A program made the translations under genes and the position numbers. Under the pieces are notes generated by a model. It was not told the origin of the DNA and did not search any database. It saw only the letters and a list, made by a program, of their open reading frames with translations. Positions 527-26,349 of a stretch of DNA of 48,277 nucleotides are shown here, one piece after another. Position 1 is the first letter of the stretch. Every line of letters starts with the position of its first letter. Source of the stretch: an uncultured Planctomycetales bacterium (lineage in GTDB: Bacteria; Omnitrophota; Gorgyraeia; Gygaellales; Profunditerraquicolaceae); NCBI GenBank assembly GCA_964645795.1, contig CAZYCL010000005.1:124771-173047 (forward strand). Reading direction: 5' to 3'.

Positions 527-2959
527 TTACTCTTCCTCTTCGGCGATCACATGCGCCACACAGGAAACCCTATCTTTATCAGCTATCTTGATCAGGCGCA
601 CTCCCTGGGCAGAACGTCCGGTTTCCCGTATATCCTTTACCGCACACCTCAAGAACATGCCATTCTGGGTGATCACCATCAACTCGTCATTATCGGTGAC
701 GGGCTTAAGATTTACTGCCTCACCGTTTTTGTCGGTCACTTTGATATTAATAATGCCTTTGCCGCCGCGGCTGGTCAGGCGATACTCTTGGGCGAGCGTG
801 CGCTTGGCAAATCCGCGCTCCGTAACCGTTAAGATCGATGAGTCTTTGCTTACAAGGATCATGTCGATAACCTGGTCTTTTTTTGCCAAAGAAATGCCCC
901 TTACGCCTCCTGCCCCCCTGCCCATATCCCGGACTTTGACTTCGGAAAACCTGACGGCTTTTCCTTGACGGGTAGCAATCAAGAGCTCCTGCTTGCCGTC
1001 GGTAAGTTCGACTCCGACCAGGGCATCGTCCTTGTCCAGGCTTATTCCGATGATCCCGCCTTTGCGAGGATTGCCGTAGGCGTCCAGCTTGGTCTTTTTG
1101 ATCTTGCCGGTGCGGGTGACCATGACCAGGAACTTGTCCGGGGAAAACTCTTTTACCGGAATAGTGGAGCTGATTTTTGCCCCGGCTTCCATATGAACGA
1201 GGTTTACGATAGCCTTACCCTTGGAGGCGCGACCGGCCTGAGGGATCTCATAGACCTTAAGCCAATGCACCTGCCCCTTATCGGTAAATATCAACAGGTG
1301 ATCCTTGGTGGAGGCAACGAAGAGGTGCTCGACGAAATCCTCCTCCTTCACTTCCGCCCCTGTCACGCCTTTTCCGCCGCGCTTCTGTTTGCGGTAAGAC
1401 GACACCGGCAGACGCTTTATGTAGCCGCCGTGGCTGATGGTGACAACCACGTCTTCTTCGGCGATCAGGTCTTCCACTTCCAGCTCCGCGACCTCTCCTA
1501 CTATATCGGTGCGGCGCTCATCCCCATACTTCTTCTTCAGGTTTTCCAGCTCATCCTTAATAATGGCTTCTATCTTCTTCTCGGAGGCCAGTATCGCCCG
1601 GCACAGTTCTATTTTTTTCAAAAGCTCTGCGTATTCGGCGTCGATCTTGTCCCGCTCAAGCGCGGTAAGCCGCTGAAGCTGCATCTCCAGTATCGCCTGG
1701 GCCTGGATCTCCGAAAGATCGAACTCCTTAACAAGGTTTTTACGCGCGTCGTCCGTGCTCTTGGACGTCTTAATGGTCTTGATGATCTTATCTATGAACT
1801 TAAGGGCTATCTTTAGCCCTTCCAGGATGTGAGCCCGTTTTAGCGCCTTATCCAGCTCAAACTGCGTCCTGCGCCTGATGATGACCTTGCGGTGCTCAAC
1901 ATAAGCCTGCAGCATCTGGTGCAGATTGAGTACTTTGGGCCGGTTGTCAACGAGCGCCAGCATTATGACTCCGAAGGTTGTTTCCAGTTGTGTGTGCTTA
2001 AAAAGAAGGTTGAGTACTATCTGCGGCTCGGTGTCGCGTTTAAGCTCAACTACAATGCGCAGGCCGTCTTTGTCAGACTCGTCGCGTATATCGGATATTC
2101 CTTCCAGTTTTTTATCGTCGACCAGCTCGGCTATCGCTTCGATGATCGAGGCCTTTTGCACCTGATAGGGTATCTCGGAGATGACTATCAGGTCTTTGCC
2201 GTTCTTCTGGTGCTCTATCGTGGCCTTGGCCCTTACCGTAAGCTTTCCTCTGCCCGTGGTATAAGCATCCTTGATCCCTCCTTTGCCGCAGATAATGCCG
2301 CCGGTGGGGAAATCCGGCCCCTTAACGTGGCGCATCAGATCCTTTATTGGTGCTTCGGGATTATCCAAGAGGTAAATAGTGGCGTCGGCTACCTCATTTA
2401 AATTGTGCGGAGGGATATTGGTGGCCATGCCTACGGCTATGCCGCTTGAGCCGTTGACCAGCAGGTTAGGCAGGGCCGCGGGCAATAGCAGCGGCTCCTT
2501 CAAAGAGGCATCAAAGTTCGGCCCGAAGTTGACGGTTTCTTTATCGATATCCTCCAGCATCGCCTCGGAGATCGCTGCCAGTCGCGCTTCCGTATAGCGC
2601 ATCGCCGCTGCCGTGTCGCCGTCGATCGAACCGAAGTTACCCTGACCGTCAACCAAGGGATAGCGCAAAGAGAAATCCTGGGCCATCCTTACCAAAGTAT
2701 CGTATACCGCCACATCGCCGTGGGGATGATATTTGCCCAGGACCTCGCCGACGATACGGGCGCACTTCTTAAAAGGTTTGGAGTGGTCCAGGTTTAACTC
2801 CTGCATGGCGTAAAGGATCCTGCGGTGCACGGGCTTCAAGCCATCGCGCACATCCGGAAGCGCCCTGCCTACGATTACGCTCATGGCGTAATTAAGATAG
2901 GAGTCCTTGACCTCCTCTTCGATATAAACCGGGATTATCTTTTCGTTTCGCGTATACAT
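527..2959 (-). CDS. gyrA: DNA gyrase subunit A
   Basis: [30 protein letters not shown] (catalytic Tyr), GyrA-box QKRGGKG and C-terminal beta-pinwheel repeats; start placed at ATG 2959 (MYTRNEK) because the ORF-track extension runs into a repeat. Confidence 0.98.
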
Positions 2960-2961
2960 TG

Positions 2962-3039
2962 AATGAGGCCGCAACGCTTTGCTAAACCCAGCAAGGCGTT
3001 GTATGGCCTAATTAATCCCGCCGAGGCTACGAGGCGGGA
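2962..3039. repeat. Composite palindromic element: 52-bp AATGAGGCC...GGCCNAATT hairpin plus a 24-bp TCCCG...CGGGA hairpin
   Basis: Ungapped 37/52 match to 15229-15280 with compensatory stem changes; both copies are followed 2 nt later by TCCCG...CGGGA (here 3016-3039). Confidence 0.8.
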
Positions 3040-3046
3040 TGTGCCC

Positions 3047-5786
<2,740 letters not shown>

Positions 5787-5795
5787 TTCATCCGT

Positions 5796-6887
5796 TTAAT
5801 TCAGGCGCATAGGAAGAACTATATAAATATAGCCGTTGGTCCGGATTACGCCTGGCTTTTCACCGTCCGTTACTTCGACTTCGACGCTTTCGTCTTTCAG
5901 GCTCTTGAGAACATCCATGAGGTAGTTGGGGTTAAACCCGATTACCATCTCTTTGCCCTGATAATCTACCTCAACCTCTTCGCGAGACTCCCCGATATCC
6001 GGCGTGGATTTAGAGACTACCAGCTTGTTTTTAAAAATCTCCAGCCTTACAGCCTGATAGTCGGGGGTAGACAAAAGGGCCGCTCTTTTTATGGTAAGCA
6101 AAAGCTGGCTTCTGTTGGTGCGGATCCTGTTCTCCGAGGCCGCCGGGATCACCTGTTTATAATCCGGGAATTCACCCTCGATCAGGCGGGAGATTATTAC
6201 CACCTGGCCGAGGTCAAAGAGTATCTGGTTGTGACCTAAAACCAGCGAGAGCTCCCCTTCTTCTTTTAGATTCCGATTTAACTCATGAATAGTTTTAATG
6301 GGAACGATTAAAAGAAGGTCTTTGTCGGTGTCCTGTTTTAGTTTTTTTTCTGAAATAGCCAGCCTTTTCCCATCGGTAGCAACGAGCGTTATTGTATTTT
6401 TACTGATCTTAAATAATATTCCGCTTAAAATATAGCGGGTTTCGTCGATAGATACCGCGAAAGACGTAAGCTCCAACATTTGTTTAAGCAGGCCTTGATC
6501 GATCTTAATGACCTCTTTATCTTTAAACTCCGGCACCTTGGGAAACTCTTCTGAGCTCAACCCCATAATCTTGAATTGGCAGGCCTCGGTTTCAATTATC
6601 ACCGAATTGTTCTTTTTGGTCGATATCTCAATCTTGTCCGCGGGTAACTCTTTGACAATATCACTAAACCGTTTGGCGGGAACCGTAATTGCACCCTGCT
6701 CCTGGATATCAACGGGTATTACACAGGTTATACCTATATCGAGATCGGTTGCAGTAAGTTTTAAATTGCTTTTATAGGTTTCAATTAATATATTAGAAAG
6801 AATAGGTAAGGAAGATTTGGATGTAATGATGTTATAGACGGTTTGTATTCCTCCAAGGATGTCTTGTTTATCCACAGTTATTTTCAT
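5796..6887 (-). CDS. dnaN: DNA polymerase III beta sliding clamp
   Basis: LPILSNILI, ATDLDI, VATDGKRLA, SRLIEGEFPDY, IGFNPNYL, C-terminal VLPMRL; follows dnaA. Confidence 0.97.
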   Translation of the reverse strand: MKITVDKQDILGGIQTVYNIITSKSSLPILSNILIETYKSNLKLTATDLDIGITCVIPVDIQEQGAITVPAKRFSDIVKELPADKIEISTKKNNSVIIETEACQFKIMGLSSEEFPKVPEFKDKEVIKIDQGLLKQMLELTSFAVSIDETRYILSGILFKISKNTITLVATDGKRLAISEKKLKQDTDKDLLLIVPIKTIHELNRNLKEEGELSLVLGHNQILFDLGQVVIISRLIEGEFPDYKQVIPAASENRIRTNRSQLLLTIKRAALLSTPDYQAVRLEIFKNKLVVSKSTPDIGESREEVEVDYQGKEMVIGFNPNYLMDVLKSLKDESVEVEVTDGEKPGVIRTNGYIYIVLPMRLN

Positions 6888-7020
6888 GCCTATCTCCTTC
6901 TATTAATTAATTTAATAAAAATCGTGGTAGAAGTAATGATTAAAATTATATCTAATAAGCCCCGATCTTATTTATACAAAAGCACTTAGTTAAATATATG
7001 CTTGTTAACATCCGGTTATT
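6868..7020. other. oriC: Predicted oriC unwinding region (dnaA-dnaN intergenic)
   Basis: Very AT-rich; perfect DnaA box TTATCCACA at 6868-6876, near box TTATACAAA at 6972-6980, DnaA-trio-like tract TGGTAGAAGTAATGAT at 6925-6940; gene orientation diverges around this locus. Confidence 0.75.
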
Positions 7021-8352
7021 TCACTGTTTGATTATCTGAATTACCCTTTCCACCCTTTCATTCAGACCGGGGTTGGTTTTTATGTCTTCCTTGATTTTGT
7101 TATAAGAATGCAGAACGGTAGTATGGTCTTTGCCACCGAAGTATTTTCCAATCTCTGGCAGGGAAAGGTCGGTCAACTCCCGGCTTAGGTACATCGCTAT
7201 CTGTCTGGGCAAGACCACTGTTTTGTTGCGGCGCTTAGTCTTAAGCTCCGCCAAGCTTATAGCGAACTCTTCAACAACACATCGCTGAATAAAATCCACC
7301 GTAATAAGTTTTTTGGGTTCCCTCAACAGGTCCCGCAGGACTTCTTTGGTCAGGTCCAGGGTTATGGGTTTTTCCTCCAATAGAGAATAGGCTATAGTGC
7401 GTATAAGCGCGCCCTCCAATTCCCTGATGTTGGTCTTTATTAATTGCGCAATGAAGAATATTACATCGTCGGGCACCGAGACTGGTTCCCGCTCGATCTT
7501 TTTCTTTAAAATGGCTACGCGGGTTTCGAGGTCCGGAGGTTGAAGGTCGGTAGTAAGCCCCCAGCCGAATCGGGAAACCAGGCGCTCCTGCAGATTGGCG
7601 ATCTCTTTGGGAGGCCTGTCAGAAGAAAAGACTATCTGCTTATGCGCATCATAAAGAGTGTTAAAGGTGTGAAAGAACTCTTCTTGGGTCGACTCCTTGC
7701 CTGCGATGAAGTGTATATCGTCTATTACCAGAATATCGGCGTTTCTGTACTTCTGTCTGAAGGCGGCGGTGGAATGATGCTGTATGGCATCGATAAGCTC
7801 ATTGGTGAAACGCTCCGAAGATATATAGCAGATCTTCTGCAAAGGATTTTTCGCGCGCACATGATGGCATATGGCCTGAATAAGATGGGTTTTGCCCAGC
7901 CCCACCCCGCCATATATAAAAAGCGGGTTATAGGCCTTGGCAGGAGTATCGGCCACTGCCATAGAATAGGCAAACGCGTGCCTGTTCGAGGAGCCGATCA
8001 CAAAATTTTCGAAAGTATACCGCGGATTGAGCGCCTGCGAGCCGATCGACTCGGTAGCCGTTAGCTTGGGTTCATATGGCACCGGGTTATTTAAAAGAAC
8101 CGGGTCCTTGCGGGAGGTGACTACAAAGCTTACCCCGGTGCTGGCCCCGCAGGCACGGGACAGGATCTCTTCTATGGGCTGGCGATAGTGCTTCTCTACC
8201 CAATCCTTGAAGAAGCTGTCAGGCGCTTCCAGGCCCAGGCAGCCATCTTTCGACTCAGCTCTTAAGGGCTGAATCCAGGTCTGATAGGCCATATCGCCAA
8301 GCTTATTCTTAAGGTCGCTTTTTGCCTGCTCCCAGGCAGCCAGAACATCCAT
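7021..8352 (-). CDS. dnaA: Chromosomal replication initiator DnaA
   Basis: LNPRYTFENFVIG, YNPLFIYGGVGLGKTHL, IDDIHF, QEEFFHTFN, NIRELEGAL, GGKDHTTVLH. Confidence 0.99.
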   Translation of the reverse strand: MDVLAAWEQAKSDLKNKLGDMAYQTWIQPLRAESKDGCLGLEAPDSFFKDWVEKHYRQPIEEILSRACGASTGVSFVVTSRKDPVLLNNPVPYEPKLTATESIGSQALNPRYTFENFVIGSSNRHAFAYSMAVADTPAKAYNPLFIYGGVGLGKTHLIQAICHHVRAKNPLQKICYISSERFTNELIDAIQHHSTAAFRQKYRNADILVIDDIHFIAGKESTQEEFFHTFNTLYDAHKQIVFSSDRPPKEIANLQERLVSRFGWGLTTDLQPPDLETRVAILKKKIEREPVSVPDDVIFFIAQLIKTNIRELEGALIRTIAYSLLEEKPITLDLTKEVLRDLLREPKKLITVDFIQRCVVEEFAISLAELKTKRRNKTVVLPRQIAMYLSRELTDLSLPEIGKYFGGKDHTTVLHSYNKIKEDIKTNPGLNERVERVIQIIKQ

Positions 8353-8363
8353 TCGCTAAAGCC

Positions 8364-8405
8364 CCATTAACAGATTATTAACAGAGTGAATAATACTGTG
8401 GAAAA
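8364..8405. promoter_or_regulatory. DnaA-box cluster in the dnaA leader
   Basis: TTATTAACA 8375-8383, AGTGAATAA 8385-8393 and TGTGGAAAA 8397-8405 (matches TTWTNCACA on the minus strand), plus a weak copy at 8364; spaced 10-12 bp apart. Confidence 0.75.
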
Positions 8406-8440
8406 CTATCGCCGTGAGTTTTTTCAAAAAGATGCCCACC

Positions 8441-8468
8441 ATTATAGCAAAGTCAAAAGGGTTTGCAA
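8441..8468 (-). promoter_or_regulatory. Sigma70-type promoter for dnaA
   Basis: Minus strand TTGCAA-16 nt-TATAAT with TGn extended -10. Confidence 0.6.
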
Positions 8469-8540
8469 GCAAAAAGATTTCTTCGCTGCGGCGCGTCTAA
8501 GGGCCGGGCCCGATCTCGGCGGCATTTATAATATTAAAGG

Positions 8541-8568
8541 TTGACTTGTAATGAAATTGTGTTATAAT
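8541..8568 (+). promoter_or_regulatory. Sigma70-type promoter for the rpmH-yidD-yidC operon
   Basis: TTGACT-16 nt-TATAAT with TGn extended -10. Confidence 0.65.
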
Positions 8569-8603
8569 TTCCAACATTCTACTAAAAGCAGAGGAGACCA
8601 GCC

Positions 8604-8741
8604 ATGAAAAAAAACATAAAAACCCCCACCCTGATCAAAGGCAAAAGGAGCCAGGGTTTCCGCAGCAGAATGGCTTCTGCGGGCGGGCGTAAGACCATTT
8701 CCCGTCGACGGAGAAAAGGTAGAAAGAAACTAAGCTTTTAA
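8604..8741 (+). CDS. rpmH: 50S ribosomal protein L34 (45 aa; absent from the ORF track)
   Basis: Hand translation [45 protein letters not shown]; GAGGAG RBS; divergent from dnaA. Confidence 0.93.
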
Positions 8742-8956
8742 TGCTAAAAAGGACGCTTATTGTCTTGATTTCGCTTTATCAGGGCTCAATCAGGCATTTA
8801 TTTCCCGCGGCCTGCCGCTTTGAGCCTAGCTGTTCCGAGTTTGCCAAACAAGCCATATTGAAGTACGGGGTTTTTAAGGGTGGGCTTAAAGCAGTTGTCC
8901 GTTTGTGCCGCTGTCACCCCTGGTCCGGATCTTCGGGTTATGACCCGCTAATTTAA
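8741..8956 (+). CDS. yidD: Membrane protein insertion efficiency factor YidD
   Basis: CRFEPSCSEFA...KYGVFKGG...RLCRCHPW...GYDP; TAATG coupling to rpmH. Confidence 0.95.
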   Translation: MLKRTLIVLISLYQGSIRHLFPAACRFEPSCSEFAKQAILKYGVFKGGLKAVVRLCRCHPWSGSSGYDPLI

Positions 8957-8966
8957 AAGGATGTTT

Positions 8967-10490
8967 ATGGAAAAAAGATTAATTCTCACTATTACCTTAT
9001 CATTGCTTGTCTTATTTTTTTGGTCCTCGTTTATATCAAAGTCATATCATGTTGAACAGCAGCAAGTTACAACTAAAATTGGTTTAATCAATGAGGCCAT
9101 AGTTATGCCCCCCTCCGCCCCTGTCAGGGCTCAGGATTTGGCTGCTGCCGCATGCAATCCTCTTGATTTCAAACTAAAGATGTTTGACCTGGTATTCAAC
9201 GAAGAAGAAGCCTCGATCAAGGAGGTGACCTTTAAAGAGCATAAAAATTATAGATTTGTGCTCGGACACAGCCTTCTTTTAAGCGACCTGCAGCCGGCCT
9301 TTAAAAAGCTCTCCGCGGACCCTCGAAACATCAGCTTCGTTTACTCTGACGGGCAAAAAAGGATCACCAAAAAGTTTTCTTTTTCCGGCGACGCCTTTGA
9401 CTTTTGGCTTAGCATTATCATTGAGAACACCAGCCCCTCTCCTCTTAAATTATCCCTTCCGCTGGAAGTAGGCGAGCTCGATTTTTCAGACCAGGCTCAC
9501 GCTCAATTCCTTGACATGGTAGTTAGCGAGGCTGATAAAGTAAAACATTTTAATGGCAGGAAGGAGATGCTTTTTAATAACGTATCCTTTGGCGGCATCA
9601 GGGATAAATATTATTGTGCTGTGGTGGATGTTCAAGGCGATATGTATGGCGGTCAAGTATTGAAGATTAATGGCAAAATGTCCAAACTGATCCTTAGATC
9701 ACAAGAAATGGTTATCCTCCCACAGGAGAGTCTTGAGAAAAAATACCATATTTATTTGGGGCCACAAGATTTACAGATATTAACCAAGATAAACCCCTAC
9801 TGGTCCGGCTTAGTAAATTATGGAACATTTGATGCTATTTCTCATATCTTACTGCAATTACTTGAATTTATACATAAATTCATTCCTAATTGGGGATGGT
9901 CAATAATCTTTTTGAGTGTTGCTGTTTATTTTTTACTTTATCCTTTGACTCTCAAGCAGATGCGTTCAATGAAAGAGATGCAGGCGCTCCAGCCGCGCAT
10001 CGAAGCCTTGAAGGCTCAATATAAAGATAATCCGCAAAAGCTAAACAAAGAGATTATGGAGCTTTACCGGGAGCATAAAGTTAACCCTCTCGGCGGGTGC
10101 CTTCCCCTTGTTTTACAAATGCCCATATTTTTTGCTTTGTATCAGACTTTAATGCGTTCTATTGTTTTAAAAGGCGCCGATTTCCTATGGATAAAAGATC
10201 TCTCTGAGCCTGACAGATTGTTCCTTTTGCCCAATTCCCTGCCTTTTATTGGTAACGAGATTAATTTGCTGCCCGTTGTGATGGCAGGCGGGATGTTCTT
10301 TCAACAAAAAATCTCCATGAGCAGCGCTGCCGTCGGCACTGCCGCTGAACAGCAAAAACTGATGACCGTGCTGTTCCCTGTCTTATTTTGTGCTATTTTT
10401 TACCACATGCCATCCGGCTTGGTTCTTTACTGGTTGATTAACAGCATTCTCAGCATCAGTTTTCAAATTAAAACGAACAGGTCAAAATGA
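8967..10490 (+). CDS. yidC: Membrane protein insertase YidC
   Basis: N-terminal TM, periplasmic domain, NWGWSII, PLTLKQMRSM, NPLGGCLP, PSGLVLYW; alternative start at 8961. Confidence 0.96.
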   Translation: MEKRLILTITLSLLVLFFWSSFISKSYHVEQQQVTTKIGLINEAIVMPPSAPVRAQDLAAAACNPLDFKLKMFDLVFNEEEASIKEVTFKEHKNYRFVLGHSLLLSDLQPAFKKLSADPRNISFVYSDGQKRITKKFSFSGDAFDFWLSIIIENTSPSPLKLSLPLEVGELDFSDQAHAQFLDMVVSEADKVKHFNGRKEMLFNNVSFGGIRDKYYCAVVDVQGDMYGGQVLKINGKMSKLILRSQEMVILPQESLEKKYHIYLGPQDLQILTKINPYWSGLVNYGTFDAISHILLQLLEFIHKFIPNWGWSIIFLSVAVYFLLYPLTLKQMRSMKEMQALQPRIEALKAQYKDNPQKLNKEIMELYREHKVNPLGGCLPLVLQMPIFFALYQTLMRSIVLKGADFLWIKDLSEPDRLFLLPNSLPFIGNEINLLPVVMAGGMFFQQKISMSSAAVGTAAEQQKLMTVLFPVLFCAIFYHMPSGLVLYWLINSILSISFQIKTNRSK

Positions 10491-15154: not shown

Positions 15155-15226
15155 GGCGACGTAGCCAAGTGGTAAGGCAGCTCTCTGCAAAAGAGCTATT
15201 CAGCGGTTCAAGTCCGCTCGTCGCCT
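15155..15226 (+). tRNA. tRNA-Cys (GCA), CCA not encoded
   Basis: GGCGACG/CGTCGCC acceptor, anticodon stem GCTCT/AGAGC with loop CTGCAAA, T-loop TTCAAGT. Confidence 0.95.
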
Positions 15227-15228
15227 TA

Positions 15229-15334
15229 AATGAGGCCATAATACTTTGCCGGGCCCGGCAAAGTATTGTTGGGCCGAATTTCTCCCGAGCTTGCACTGAA
15301 CCGCCAACAGCGGTCAATGCGTATAAGCTCGGGA
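15229..15334. repeat. Second copy of the composite palindromic element (52-bp hairpin plus 52-bp TCCCG...CGGGA hairpin)
   Basis: Contains the perfect palindrome AATACTTTGCCGGGCCCGGCAAAGTATT; TCCCGAGCTT...AAGCTCGGGA at 15283-15334; homologous to 2962-3039. Confidence 0.8.
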
Positions 15335-15351
15335 CTCAATACTTAAATTCC

Positions 15352-15587
15352 GGGCGGTTAGTTCAATTTAAATTTTCCGACAAGGAAAATTTAAATTGAT
15401 CCTTTTCGAACGTCGTTTTGCGACAAGCAAAACAGTGAGAAAAGGATCTAATTGTTGGATAGCACAGAGGATTTCGGGCGGTTAGTTCAGCCCCTGCAGA
15501 AAGCGCAGGGGCTCCCGCGGATGCAAAAAGCGCATCCTTGGTCGTTGGTAAAAGGTGTTCACTACCCGCCAGCGACTAAAAGATTTC
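15352..15587 (+). pseudogene. Two aborted 5' copies of tRNA-Val, each followed by paired hairpins
   Basis: GGGCGGTTAGTTCA at 15352-15365 and GATTTCGGGCGGTTAGTTCAG at 15470-15490, the latter identical to 15582-15602 (leader plus nt 1-15 of tRNA-Val). Confidence 0.8.
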
Positions 15588-15664: not shown

Positions 15665-15688
15665 TAACAGCTCGTAAAGCGTTAGTCG

Positions 15689-15743
15689 GTTGCGTAGCGC
15701 GAAACGTAAGGCGTCTTGCGCTAAACGTTACGCGCTACGCAAC
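15689..15743. repeat. Long inverted repeat between tRNA-Val and tRNA-Leu
   Basis: 13-bp perfect arms GTTGCGTAGCGCG/CGCGCTACGCAAC, extended by AACGT/ACGTT after one mismatch. Confidence 0.75.
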
Positions 15744-15766
15744 GGATAAACGTAGCACGATAATCA

Positions 15767-26042: not shown

Positions 26043-26058
26043 AGTGCTAGAAGATAAG

Positions 26059-26212
26059 ATTCCCTGCGGTGCGCGTTGGAACATTGATAATTGTTGAGCC
26101 AACACCAACAATCAGGGGCCCAAAAGTTCCCGGCGCCTAAGGCTACGGGACAGGGTACCCACCTGAAACCAAATGGTTCAGACTATCACTCTGACGGCAC
26201 AATGCGGGGATT
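26059..26212 (+). ncRNA. ssrS: 6S RNA
   Basis: Ends pair as a rod (TCCCTGCGGTGC with GCACAATGCGGGGA); 3' internal hairpin CTGAAACCAAATGGTTCAG resembles the conserved 6S motif; typical position after pheT. Boundaries approximate. Confidence 0.8.
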
Positions 26213-26216
26213 GAAT

Positions 26217-26271
26217 ATCCGTCCCGCCGCTCTGGCCGGTGCAAAAACCGGATCCGGAATGCGGGACGGAT
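26217..26271. repeat. TCCCG...CGGGA-type hairpin downstream of 6S RNA (may double as terminator)
   Basis: 11-bp perfect arms ATCCGTCCCGC/GCGGGACGGAT with inner CCGGT/ACCGG hairpin; followed by a T-rich tract. Confidence 0.7.
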
Positions 26272-26349
26272 TTATTTTAGGCCCCCCTGTTTCTATTCCC
26301 AATCGCAAAAAATCTGATATAATAATATCCCTAAAGGCGATCGGATCAT

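Follow-up and report, generated by a model that had tools for sequence, protein, structure and literature searches.

The two palindromic elements found in the 48,277-nt stretch of DNA analysed here (the window) are best explained, with a probability of about 0.65, as old, diverged copies of a bipartite Omnitrophota repeat that is REP/REPIN- or MITE-like, non-autonomous, insertional and recognised through its hairpins. The family to which they belong is a real, large, structure-conserving repeat and not a product of chance. Comparison of its copies shows a non-coding insertional DNA element that lands in very short spacers in either orientation, often several times per operon, the copies then decaying. 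Omnitrophota are an uncultivated phylum of largely ultra-small cells with compact genomes, and no structured element that is conserved, present in many copies and placed where their genes meet has previously been described; a search of the literature on Omnitrophota/Omnitrophica repeats found no description of it. The GyrA homologues that are 84-88% identical to that of the window carry the names Candidatus Omnitrophica or Omnitrophota.

Two paired hairpins in the window

The original prediction described a 52-bp palindrome present twice, and the plus-strand segments 2962-3013 (copy W1) and 15229-15280 (copy W2) do align without gaps at 37/52 identical positions. Extended into the flanks (2959-3020 and 15226-15287), the alignment reaches 44/62, and no other repeat pair in the window is as long. 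The predicted compensatory differences were also found, the inner stem having CG/CG in W1 and TA/TA in W2 and the closing pair changing from T-A to C-G. The TCCCG...CGGGA hairpin said to follow does begin 2 nt past the palindrome in both copies and proves to be part of the element, the arrangement of this hairpin (A) with the palindrome (B) being constant across the family. Both regions fold far above shuffled sequence (z -3.1 to -7.4). These observations stood, with a correction of the reading strand, as the family consensus runs on the minus strand of the window. The two copies lie on one strand; W1 is sense to gyrB-gyrA and W2 antisense to tRNA-Cys.

On the minus strand, hairpin B of W1 spans 2960..3015 (the core 2962-3013 plus two outer pairs), scores 46.9 bits (R1) and 36.2 bits (R2) and reads TT AATTAGGCC ATAC AACGCCTTGC tgggttta GCAAAGCGTT GC GGCCTCATT CA. 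Its hairpin A is a short form, ATCCCGCC tcgtagcc tc GGCGGGAT, at 3015..3040 (minus), 7 nt past the gyrB stop; the TCCCGCC..GGCGGGA stem at 3016-3039 has the position and the TCCC..GGGA base seen in the family alignment of hairpin A. Hairpin B of W2 occupies 15227..15282 (core 15229-15280, minus; 44.5 bits with R1, 36.7 bits with R2), and its AATACTTTGCC stem variant recurs at locus L120. The accompanying hairpin A (15283..15334, minus) is a long form of 52 nt, TCCCGAGC..GCTCGGGA, with a nested inner hairpin. W2 starts right after the last base of tRNA-Cys (15155..15226, plus), whose 3' end it thus abuts.

Covariance model R2, built from 115 metagenome copies with the window copies left out, recovered exactly W1 (36.2 bits, E 4e-8) and W2 (36.7 bits, E 3e-8) when the 48-kb window was scanned on both strands, with nothing further at E < 0.2. 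W1 and W2 are old members of the family, atypical and low-scoring, with an inner stem unlike the consensus. In the source metagenomes the only sequence at least 80% identical to W2 is the W2 locus itself, and since no other such copy is present in the source genome, the element may no longer be active there.

The window holds several further hairpins. One at 15361-15401 (GTTCAATTTAAATTTTCC..GGAAAATTTAAATTGATC) is a marginal match to the B model (15.5 bits, E 0.1) and resembles the B type without its GGCC clamp, and a long, near-perfect hairpin with a stem of ~30 bp (15675-15760) occupies the spacer between tRNA-Val and tRNA-Leu. A 6S RNA gene (26058-26214; Rfam RF00013, 54 bits) is followed at 26219-26275 by a nested TCCCGCC...GCGGGA hairpin and a T-run that look like the 6S terminator. 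The window has 9 matches to the pattern TCCCG-N(6-36)-CGGGA where 2.6 would be expected, a count reached in 0 of 100 shuffles.

Size, structure and hosts of the family

A third member lies after tRNA-Glu in L007, sharing the flanks and architecture of the window copies and having a wholly different inner stem. A search pattern derived from these three sequences, AATTNGGCCNNACAAN{20,32}TTNNGGCCTNATT, specifies 22 bases and by estimate should match by chance ~1 time per 7x10^11 bases; in JGI metagenome contigs it picked out at least 120 stretches, with L114 and L147, among the matches listed, looking like chance matches. A covariance-model search of the 0.8 Mb of loci listed gave ~170 copies, with up to 5 per 7-8 kb locus. 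There were 0 matches in viral contigs. A comparison with Rfam 15, covering the window at gathering score and 20 element-bearing loci at E <= 1, returned only tRNAs, 6S RNA and noise. The claim of a repeated, structure-conserving element is therefore borne out by more than 120 further copies with strong covariation in both hairpins, and what the prediction had named as evidence against it, an absence of further copies or a match to a known repeat family, was not encountered, the latter as judged from Rfam. That only two copies occur in the window, and that palindromes halve the number of independent positions, had left room for a chance likeness of two unrelated hairpins; this is refuted by the E values of 3e-8 and 4e-8 from a model made without those copies, and by the more than 120 others of one architecture.

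Hairpin B is 51-60 nt long and is built of AAT-TC-GGCC, a 2-nt bulge, a 10-bp stem, a loop of 8-20 nt and GGCC-TC-ATT, enclosed by two covarying outer pairs. Its core is AATTCGGCC-ACAACTTAYG...CRTAAGTTGT-GGCCTCATT, and its full consensus is GAT[T/A] AATTCGGCC A[A/G/T]AC AACTTAYG (loop, TTCRCT..YTCC) CRTAAGTT GT GGCCTCATT [T/A]AA. The GGCC clamps and the blocks ACAACTTA/TAAGTTGT are invariant, and the internal TC/TC mismatch is kept even where the search pattern imposed no base. Tandem GA/GA in a Y-GA-R context is a stable non-canonical motif; the TC/TC mismatch is just this on the opposite strand, and W1 folds better on the plus strand because tandem GA/GA there takes the place of TC/TC.

Covariation in hairpin B is extensive: 97.3% of the cells are paired, and both sides have changed in 170 cells versus 50 in shuffles, values that were reached in 0 of 500 shuffles. 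Pair 4-66 is AU 49, UA 46 and CG 11 times, and pair 24-48 is CG 51, UA 41 and GC 17 times. The outermost bases (two before AATT and two after CATT) pair completely with each other in 91 of the 119 copies listed, chiefly as TA/TA (44), TT/AA (33) and TC/GA (8). These data bear directly on the idea that the palindrome is bound by a protein as duplex DNA, for instance as a nucleoid-protein or gyrase site or a DNA-uptake signal. [quoted passage not shown] PMC2817692). However, the compensatory changes in both arms, within the family and within single genomes, point to pairing within one strand, as do the 8-20-nt loops and the covarying outermost pairs, and W1 and W2, whose inner stem is altogether different, still have the fold. 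Duplex binding is accordingly a very improbable account of the family.

Hairpin A is always 5' of B, at a gap of 0-2 nt among the copies listed, and measures 15-95 nt (most commonly 54-58 nt); its interior varies and often contains a nested hairpin. The consensus of A can be written ATCCC-TC-GCCTAAGCGCTTG-[AT-rich inner palindrome]-CTGCGCAGGC-TC-GGGAT; A covaries as well, and the architecture of its base resembles that of B. Among the copies listed, B'-A-B triples occur at ~8 loci, and most copies, W1 and W2 included, are A-B singles. The triples at L133:5045-5242 and L158:5000-5182, in which B' is the variant AATGAG-CAC..GTG-CGAATT, form a three-hairpin fold (z ~ -10 as DNA), are closed by AATGAG/CTCATT ends and resemble REPIN doublets. 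Four B copies in one orientation lie within 800 nt at L207:360-1180. Copy quality within one genome can span the range from near-consensus to degenerate, as in L129, where scores fall from 80 to 25 bits.

All four hosts named in the sources are Omnitrophota, of different genera. That B has nearly one consensus in all these genera is beyond what would be expected for a purely selfish, decaying repeat, and is a hint that the element has a conserved partner or serves the host.

Gene boundaries, tRNA genes and the question of mobility

The minus strand of the window carries dnaA-dnaN-dciA-like-gyrB-gyrA, and all later genes are on the plus strand. The sign of the GC skew switches at ~6-10 kb, and together with gene orientation this makes it likely that the replication origin lies between W1 and W2, which would then be on opposite replichores. 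A likely origin position is 6000-10000, where gene orientation flips between dnaA (7021-8352, minus) and the rpmH/yidC side; the 608-nt spacer at 8353-8960 in this region is partly AT-rich.

Between gyrB (3047-5500, minus; stop TAG 3047..3049) and gyrA (527-2959, minus; ATG 2959-2957), the 87-nt spacer 2960-3046 is wholly taken up by A+B. As had been pointed out, the gyrA ATG lies 2 nt past hairpin B and has no Shine-Dalgarno sequence. The exact 810-aa GyrA product is found on five public contigs, with the N-terminus MYTRNEKI as in relatives, and the gyrB-gyrA spacers of contigs from the same strain are identical and thus uninformative. Orthologous gyrB-gyrA spacers were looked for at the suggestion of the original prediction, and some do lack the element: in L086 and L088-L090 (GyrA 87%) the junction is simply TAA-T-ATG (TAATATG). 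A DnaA-based scan of GTDB genomes yielded two close relatives only, L006 and L007. In L007 (DnaA 71%) the gyrB-gyrA spacer comprises 71 nt of unrelated sequence, and its tRNA-Cys is followed by the next tRNA after 19 nt, with the element absent. From its absence at orthologous sites in relatives, the element is an insertion, with copies present in some lineages and missing in others; in this lineage one copy was inserted at the gyrB-gyrA junction and another directly after tRNA-Cys. The closest relative, L087 (GyrA 88%), has a 157-nt gyrB-gyrA spacer in which hairpin A is canonical and the B-like hairpin that follows is divergent (L087:9844-10000: ATCCCTCGCCTAAGCGCTTGAAGATTTC..GGCTCGGGAT, then AATT, ACAGTTTACG..CGTAAACTGT and the end CAATT-ATG). 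The site was thus occupied in that lineage too, and judging from this pair the gyrB-gyrA copy could be inherited rather than newly inserted.

Elsewhere the neighbours are housekeeping operons (bamA-skp-lpxD-lpxC/fabZ-lpxA-lpxI, gyrBA, pth, glmS and others) whose whole intergenic spacers are taken up by the copies. Several loci contain 2-5 copies, for example one in every spacer of a bamA-skp-lpxD-lpxC/fabZ-lpxA-lpxI operon. The family is orientation-independent: among the copies listed, 61 are sense and 57 antisense to the flanking genes. This ratio of ~1:1 supports the proposal, first made from the opposed relation of the two window copies to local transcription, of a DNA-level element rather than an orientation-specific RNA regulator.

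The main rival is nevertheless an RNA one, in which the hairpins are host-selected punctuation that directs endonucleolytic processing, protects 3' ends or sets up translation of the next gene, for example on leaderless or re-initiating mRNAs, many copies being kept for that function. Its appeal comes from the exact abutment of genes to the TCATT end of B, which among the copies listed lies 1-4 nt before a start codon without Shine-Dalgarno in ~18 cases, gyrA included, overlaps an opposite-strand stop codon in ~20, and in 9 is within 1-4 nt of the 3' end of a tRNA, as at tRNA-Cys. The strong conservation of pairing, the consensus kept across genera and the ending of the 6S RNA gene by an A-type hairpin and T-run fit as well. 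Against this, the balanced orientation would require two different RNAs to do one job, and tight abutment is expected anyway where spacers are 1-20 nt. G.U is no commoner than A.C on the transcribed strand, the G.T to A.C mismatch ratio showing no flip when stratified by orientation, in a sample with few mismatches. No U-tract follows the hairpins, copies degenerate within one genome, and relatives lack the element at orthologous sites. RNA punctuation is on balance an unlikely, though serious, explanation.

Eight of 109 copies sit in the loops of partial tRNA copies. The direct repeats on either side of them measure 12 to ~97 nt and correspond to parts of the adjacent tRNA gene, starting in a loop and running out of the gene. 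Insertion is in the T-loop (GGTTC|A-B|RAWTCC) in L007, L091, L138 and L192, in the anticodon loop in L128 and in the D-loop in L206 and L186. In all tRNA cases B abuts the fragment and the intact tRNA is on the A side, and at least six different tRNAs are involved. The same pattern, formed by other hairpins, is seen in the window at tRNA-Val and tRNA-Glu. GATTTCGGGCGGTTAGTTCAG, made up of the 6 nt upstream of tRNA-Val and the first 15 nt of the gene (5' 21 nt), has three copies, which start at 15346, 15470 and 15582, and the third belongs to the real tRNA-Val; the repeats are separated by hairpin-rich units of 124 and 112 nt.

Several other tRNA arrangements were noted. The three tRNAs of the tRNA-Val cluster are only 8-19 nt apart in L007. 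On the minus strand of the window, a tRNA-Glu 5' remnant of ~52 nt (337-520) lies between gyrA and a GIY-YIG nuclease gene (ORF 73-336, minus; Pfam PF01541, E 8e-14), and the intact tRNA-Glu (23-97, minus) comes after that gene. The remnant is split in the D arm and inside the anticodon by abutting TCCCGCC-N16/17-GGCGGGA hairpin pairs (353-388 and 389-421; 447-476 and 477-506; minus). L007 has a matching hairpin pair at the matching position of its tRNA-Glu remnant, with unrelated loops, and in L086 the intact tRNA-Glu comes directly past gyrA, without the GIY-YIG gene. At L186:7590-7760 a 12-nt 5' fragment of tRNA-Arg, a 23-nt spacer and a B hairpin are repeated in tandem two to three times. 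An association with the GIY-YIG gene was considered and rejected, the gene being found, besides the window, only in L007 and L106 among the copies listed. A tRNA-intron reading was dropped because the remnants are not complete tRNAs, and promoter, group II intron domain V/VI and integron attC readings were dropped on unfit spacing or consensus.

The tRNA cases raise the idea that A+B is a miniature derivative or scar, an end structure, of tRNA-targeting integrative elements spread by site-specific recombination. The tRNA-derived repeats around 8/109 copies, the constant polarity of B towards the fragment, the abutment of W2 to tRNA-Cys and the hairpin-rich partial duplications of tRNA-Val and tRNA-Glu in the window are all in line with it. 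Yet ~100 of the 109 copies lie between protein genes without any repeats, the range of tRNAs is more than one integrase core site can explain, A-B is placed inside the remnant loop and not between attL and attR, and the ORFs around copies include no integrase. Such an origin is improbable.

No transposase, RAYT or integrase was detected by ORF clustering and HUH/Y1 motifs among 689 ORFs in 0.67 Mb around copies, and the window likewise contains no RAYT gene flanked by inverted repeats. Flank matches follow the shuffled null, giving no sign of a short target-site duplication apart from the tRNA-linked cases, and no target motif flanks the copies. Since transposase gene, target duplication and target motif are all missing from these data, mobility is deduced only from the distribution of copies and their presence or absence at orthologous sites. 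In the preferred reading of a hairpin-recognised insertional element, copying would depend on an enzyme acting in trans, which would recognise the hairpins in their folded state and most likely in single-stranded DNA (cf. REP/REPIN-RAYT and IS200/IS605). Such recognition would explain the compensatory pairing, the lack of target duplication and the targeting of DNA that forms stem-loops, for example tRNA gene loops. Once inserted, the element would be co-transcribed and fold into two self-contained hairpins that draw the flanking gene ends together, which would make it tolerable at gene boundaries; the transcribed hairpins may change mRNA stability or the translational coupling of gyrA.

A more tentative view, to which we would give low odds, combines loop insertion, regeneration and punctuation and takes A-B for a mobile element of a new, structure-targeting kind, or for a substrate on which a conserved nuclease or recombinase of Omnitrophota acts. 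Insertion would then occur into single-stranded loops of DNA that forms stem-loops, tRNA genes with their T-, D- and anticodon loops being examples, the gene that was hit would be restored via long, variable duplications, and the transcribed hairpins would serve as operon punctuation, with gyrA-like genes translated without Shine-Dalgarno sequences.

For annotation, the element accounts for odd spacers, apparent genes without Shine-Dalgarno sequences and assembly breaks around tRNA clusters, and ORFs that run into or end in it can mislead start and stop calls. It is also an insertion/deletion marker between close lineages, and the gyrB-gyrA insertion and the links to tRNA fragments raise testable questions on translation re-initiation and the targeting of structured DNA.

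Comparison with known repeats

REP sequences are imperfect extragenic palindromes of 20-40 bp with high copy number and a GT(A/G)G or CGTC end tag (PMC2817692, PMC3733652), and the REP/BIME/REPIN sequences of Proteobacteria are mobilised by RAYT transposases (PMC2817692, PMC3116915, PMC3733652). The Omnitrophota element shares with them the short imperfect extragenic palindromes in many copies, the intra-operon spacers, both orientations, compensatory pairing, mosaics of hairpin types and lack of target duplication, and its B'-A-B triples are comparable to REPIN inverted doublets, in which two inverted REPs separated by a short spacer replicate as one unit. The 48-kb window has 2 copies, and other loci among those listed have as many as 5 in 7 kb. 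In contrast to REPs, B is longer (51-60 nt), has an internal TC/TC (GA/GA) loop and a bulge, and lacks a GT(A/G)G or CGTC head, its ends being (T)NAATTCGGCC and GGCCTCATTN(A) and those of A being ATCCC and GGGAT. Further differences from REP/REPIN are the obligate A+B pair, the consensus common to several genera, the occurrence in Omnitrophota and not Proteobacteria, the lack of a RAYT among the ORFs around copies, and the copies in tRNA gene loops with long direct repeats. The element thus offers a tractable case of palindromic-repeat mobility outside Proteobacteria.

Bacterial MITEs, among them Correia (Neisseria), ERIC/RU, BOX and RUP (reviewed in PMC3184786), are the other obvious comparison. 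Like these, the element is non-coding, 80-190 nt long, intergenic and co-transcribed, with long hairpins and presence or absence at orthologous sites. Unlike them, its ends ATCCC... and ...CTCATT are not mutual inverted repeats, only B alone being palindromic, and it has no target-site duplication such as TA. We know of no autonomous IS related to the A+B element. With the GTAG/CGTC test for REPs and the inverted-repeat and duplication tests for MITEs negative, and no RAYT found, the element is filed in neither class. Nor does it look like an intrinsic terminator, a G+C-rich hairpin with a U-tract behind it on the transcribed strand, as B is followed by A-rich (TAA/AAA) flanks and neither hairpin leads into a T-run, whichever way it is oriented; the separate A-type hairpin after the 6S RNA gene is the one case with a T-run.

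Among mobile elements, IS1634/IS1549-type elements are autonomous IS with transposase genes and long, variable direct repeats. Variable direct repeats of tens of bases are shared by the element in its tRNA contexts only, whereas most A+B copies are without any repeats. PATEs and the ends of IS200/IS605 carry subterminal hairpins that are recognised on single-stranded DNA, insert without duplication and have two-hairpin non-autonomous derivatives; in contrast to these, A+B has no conserved tetra- or pentanucleotide target, no orientation bias and no tnpA or tnpB seen. Small dispersed cyanobacterial repeats are said, in work by Elhai et al. from 2008, to insert into one another and into hairpin loops, RNA genes included. 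The Omnitrophota element resembles them in the very small size of its palindromic units, in the nesting of insertions and in the use of existing stem-loops, whose loops it enters; it differs in sequence and phylum and in that its unit joins a structured, conserved hairpin of 52 nt to another hairpin.
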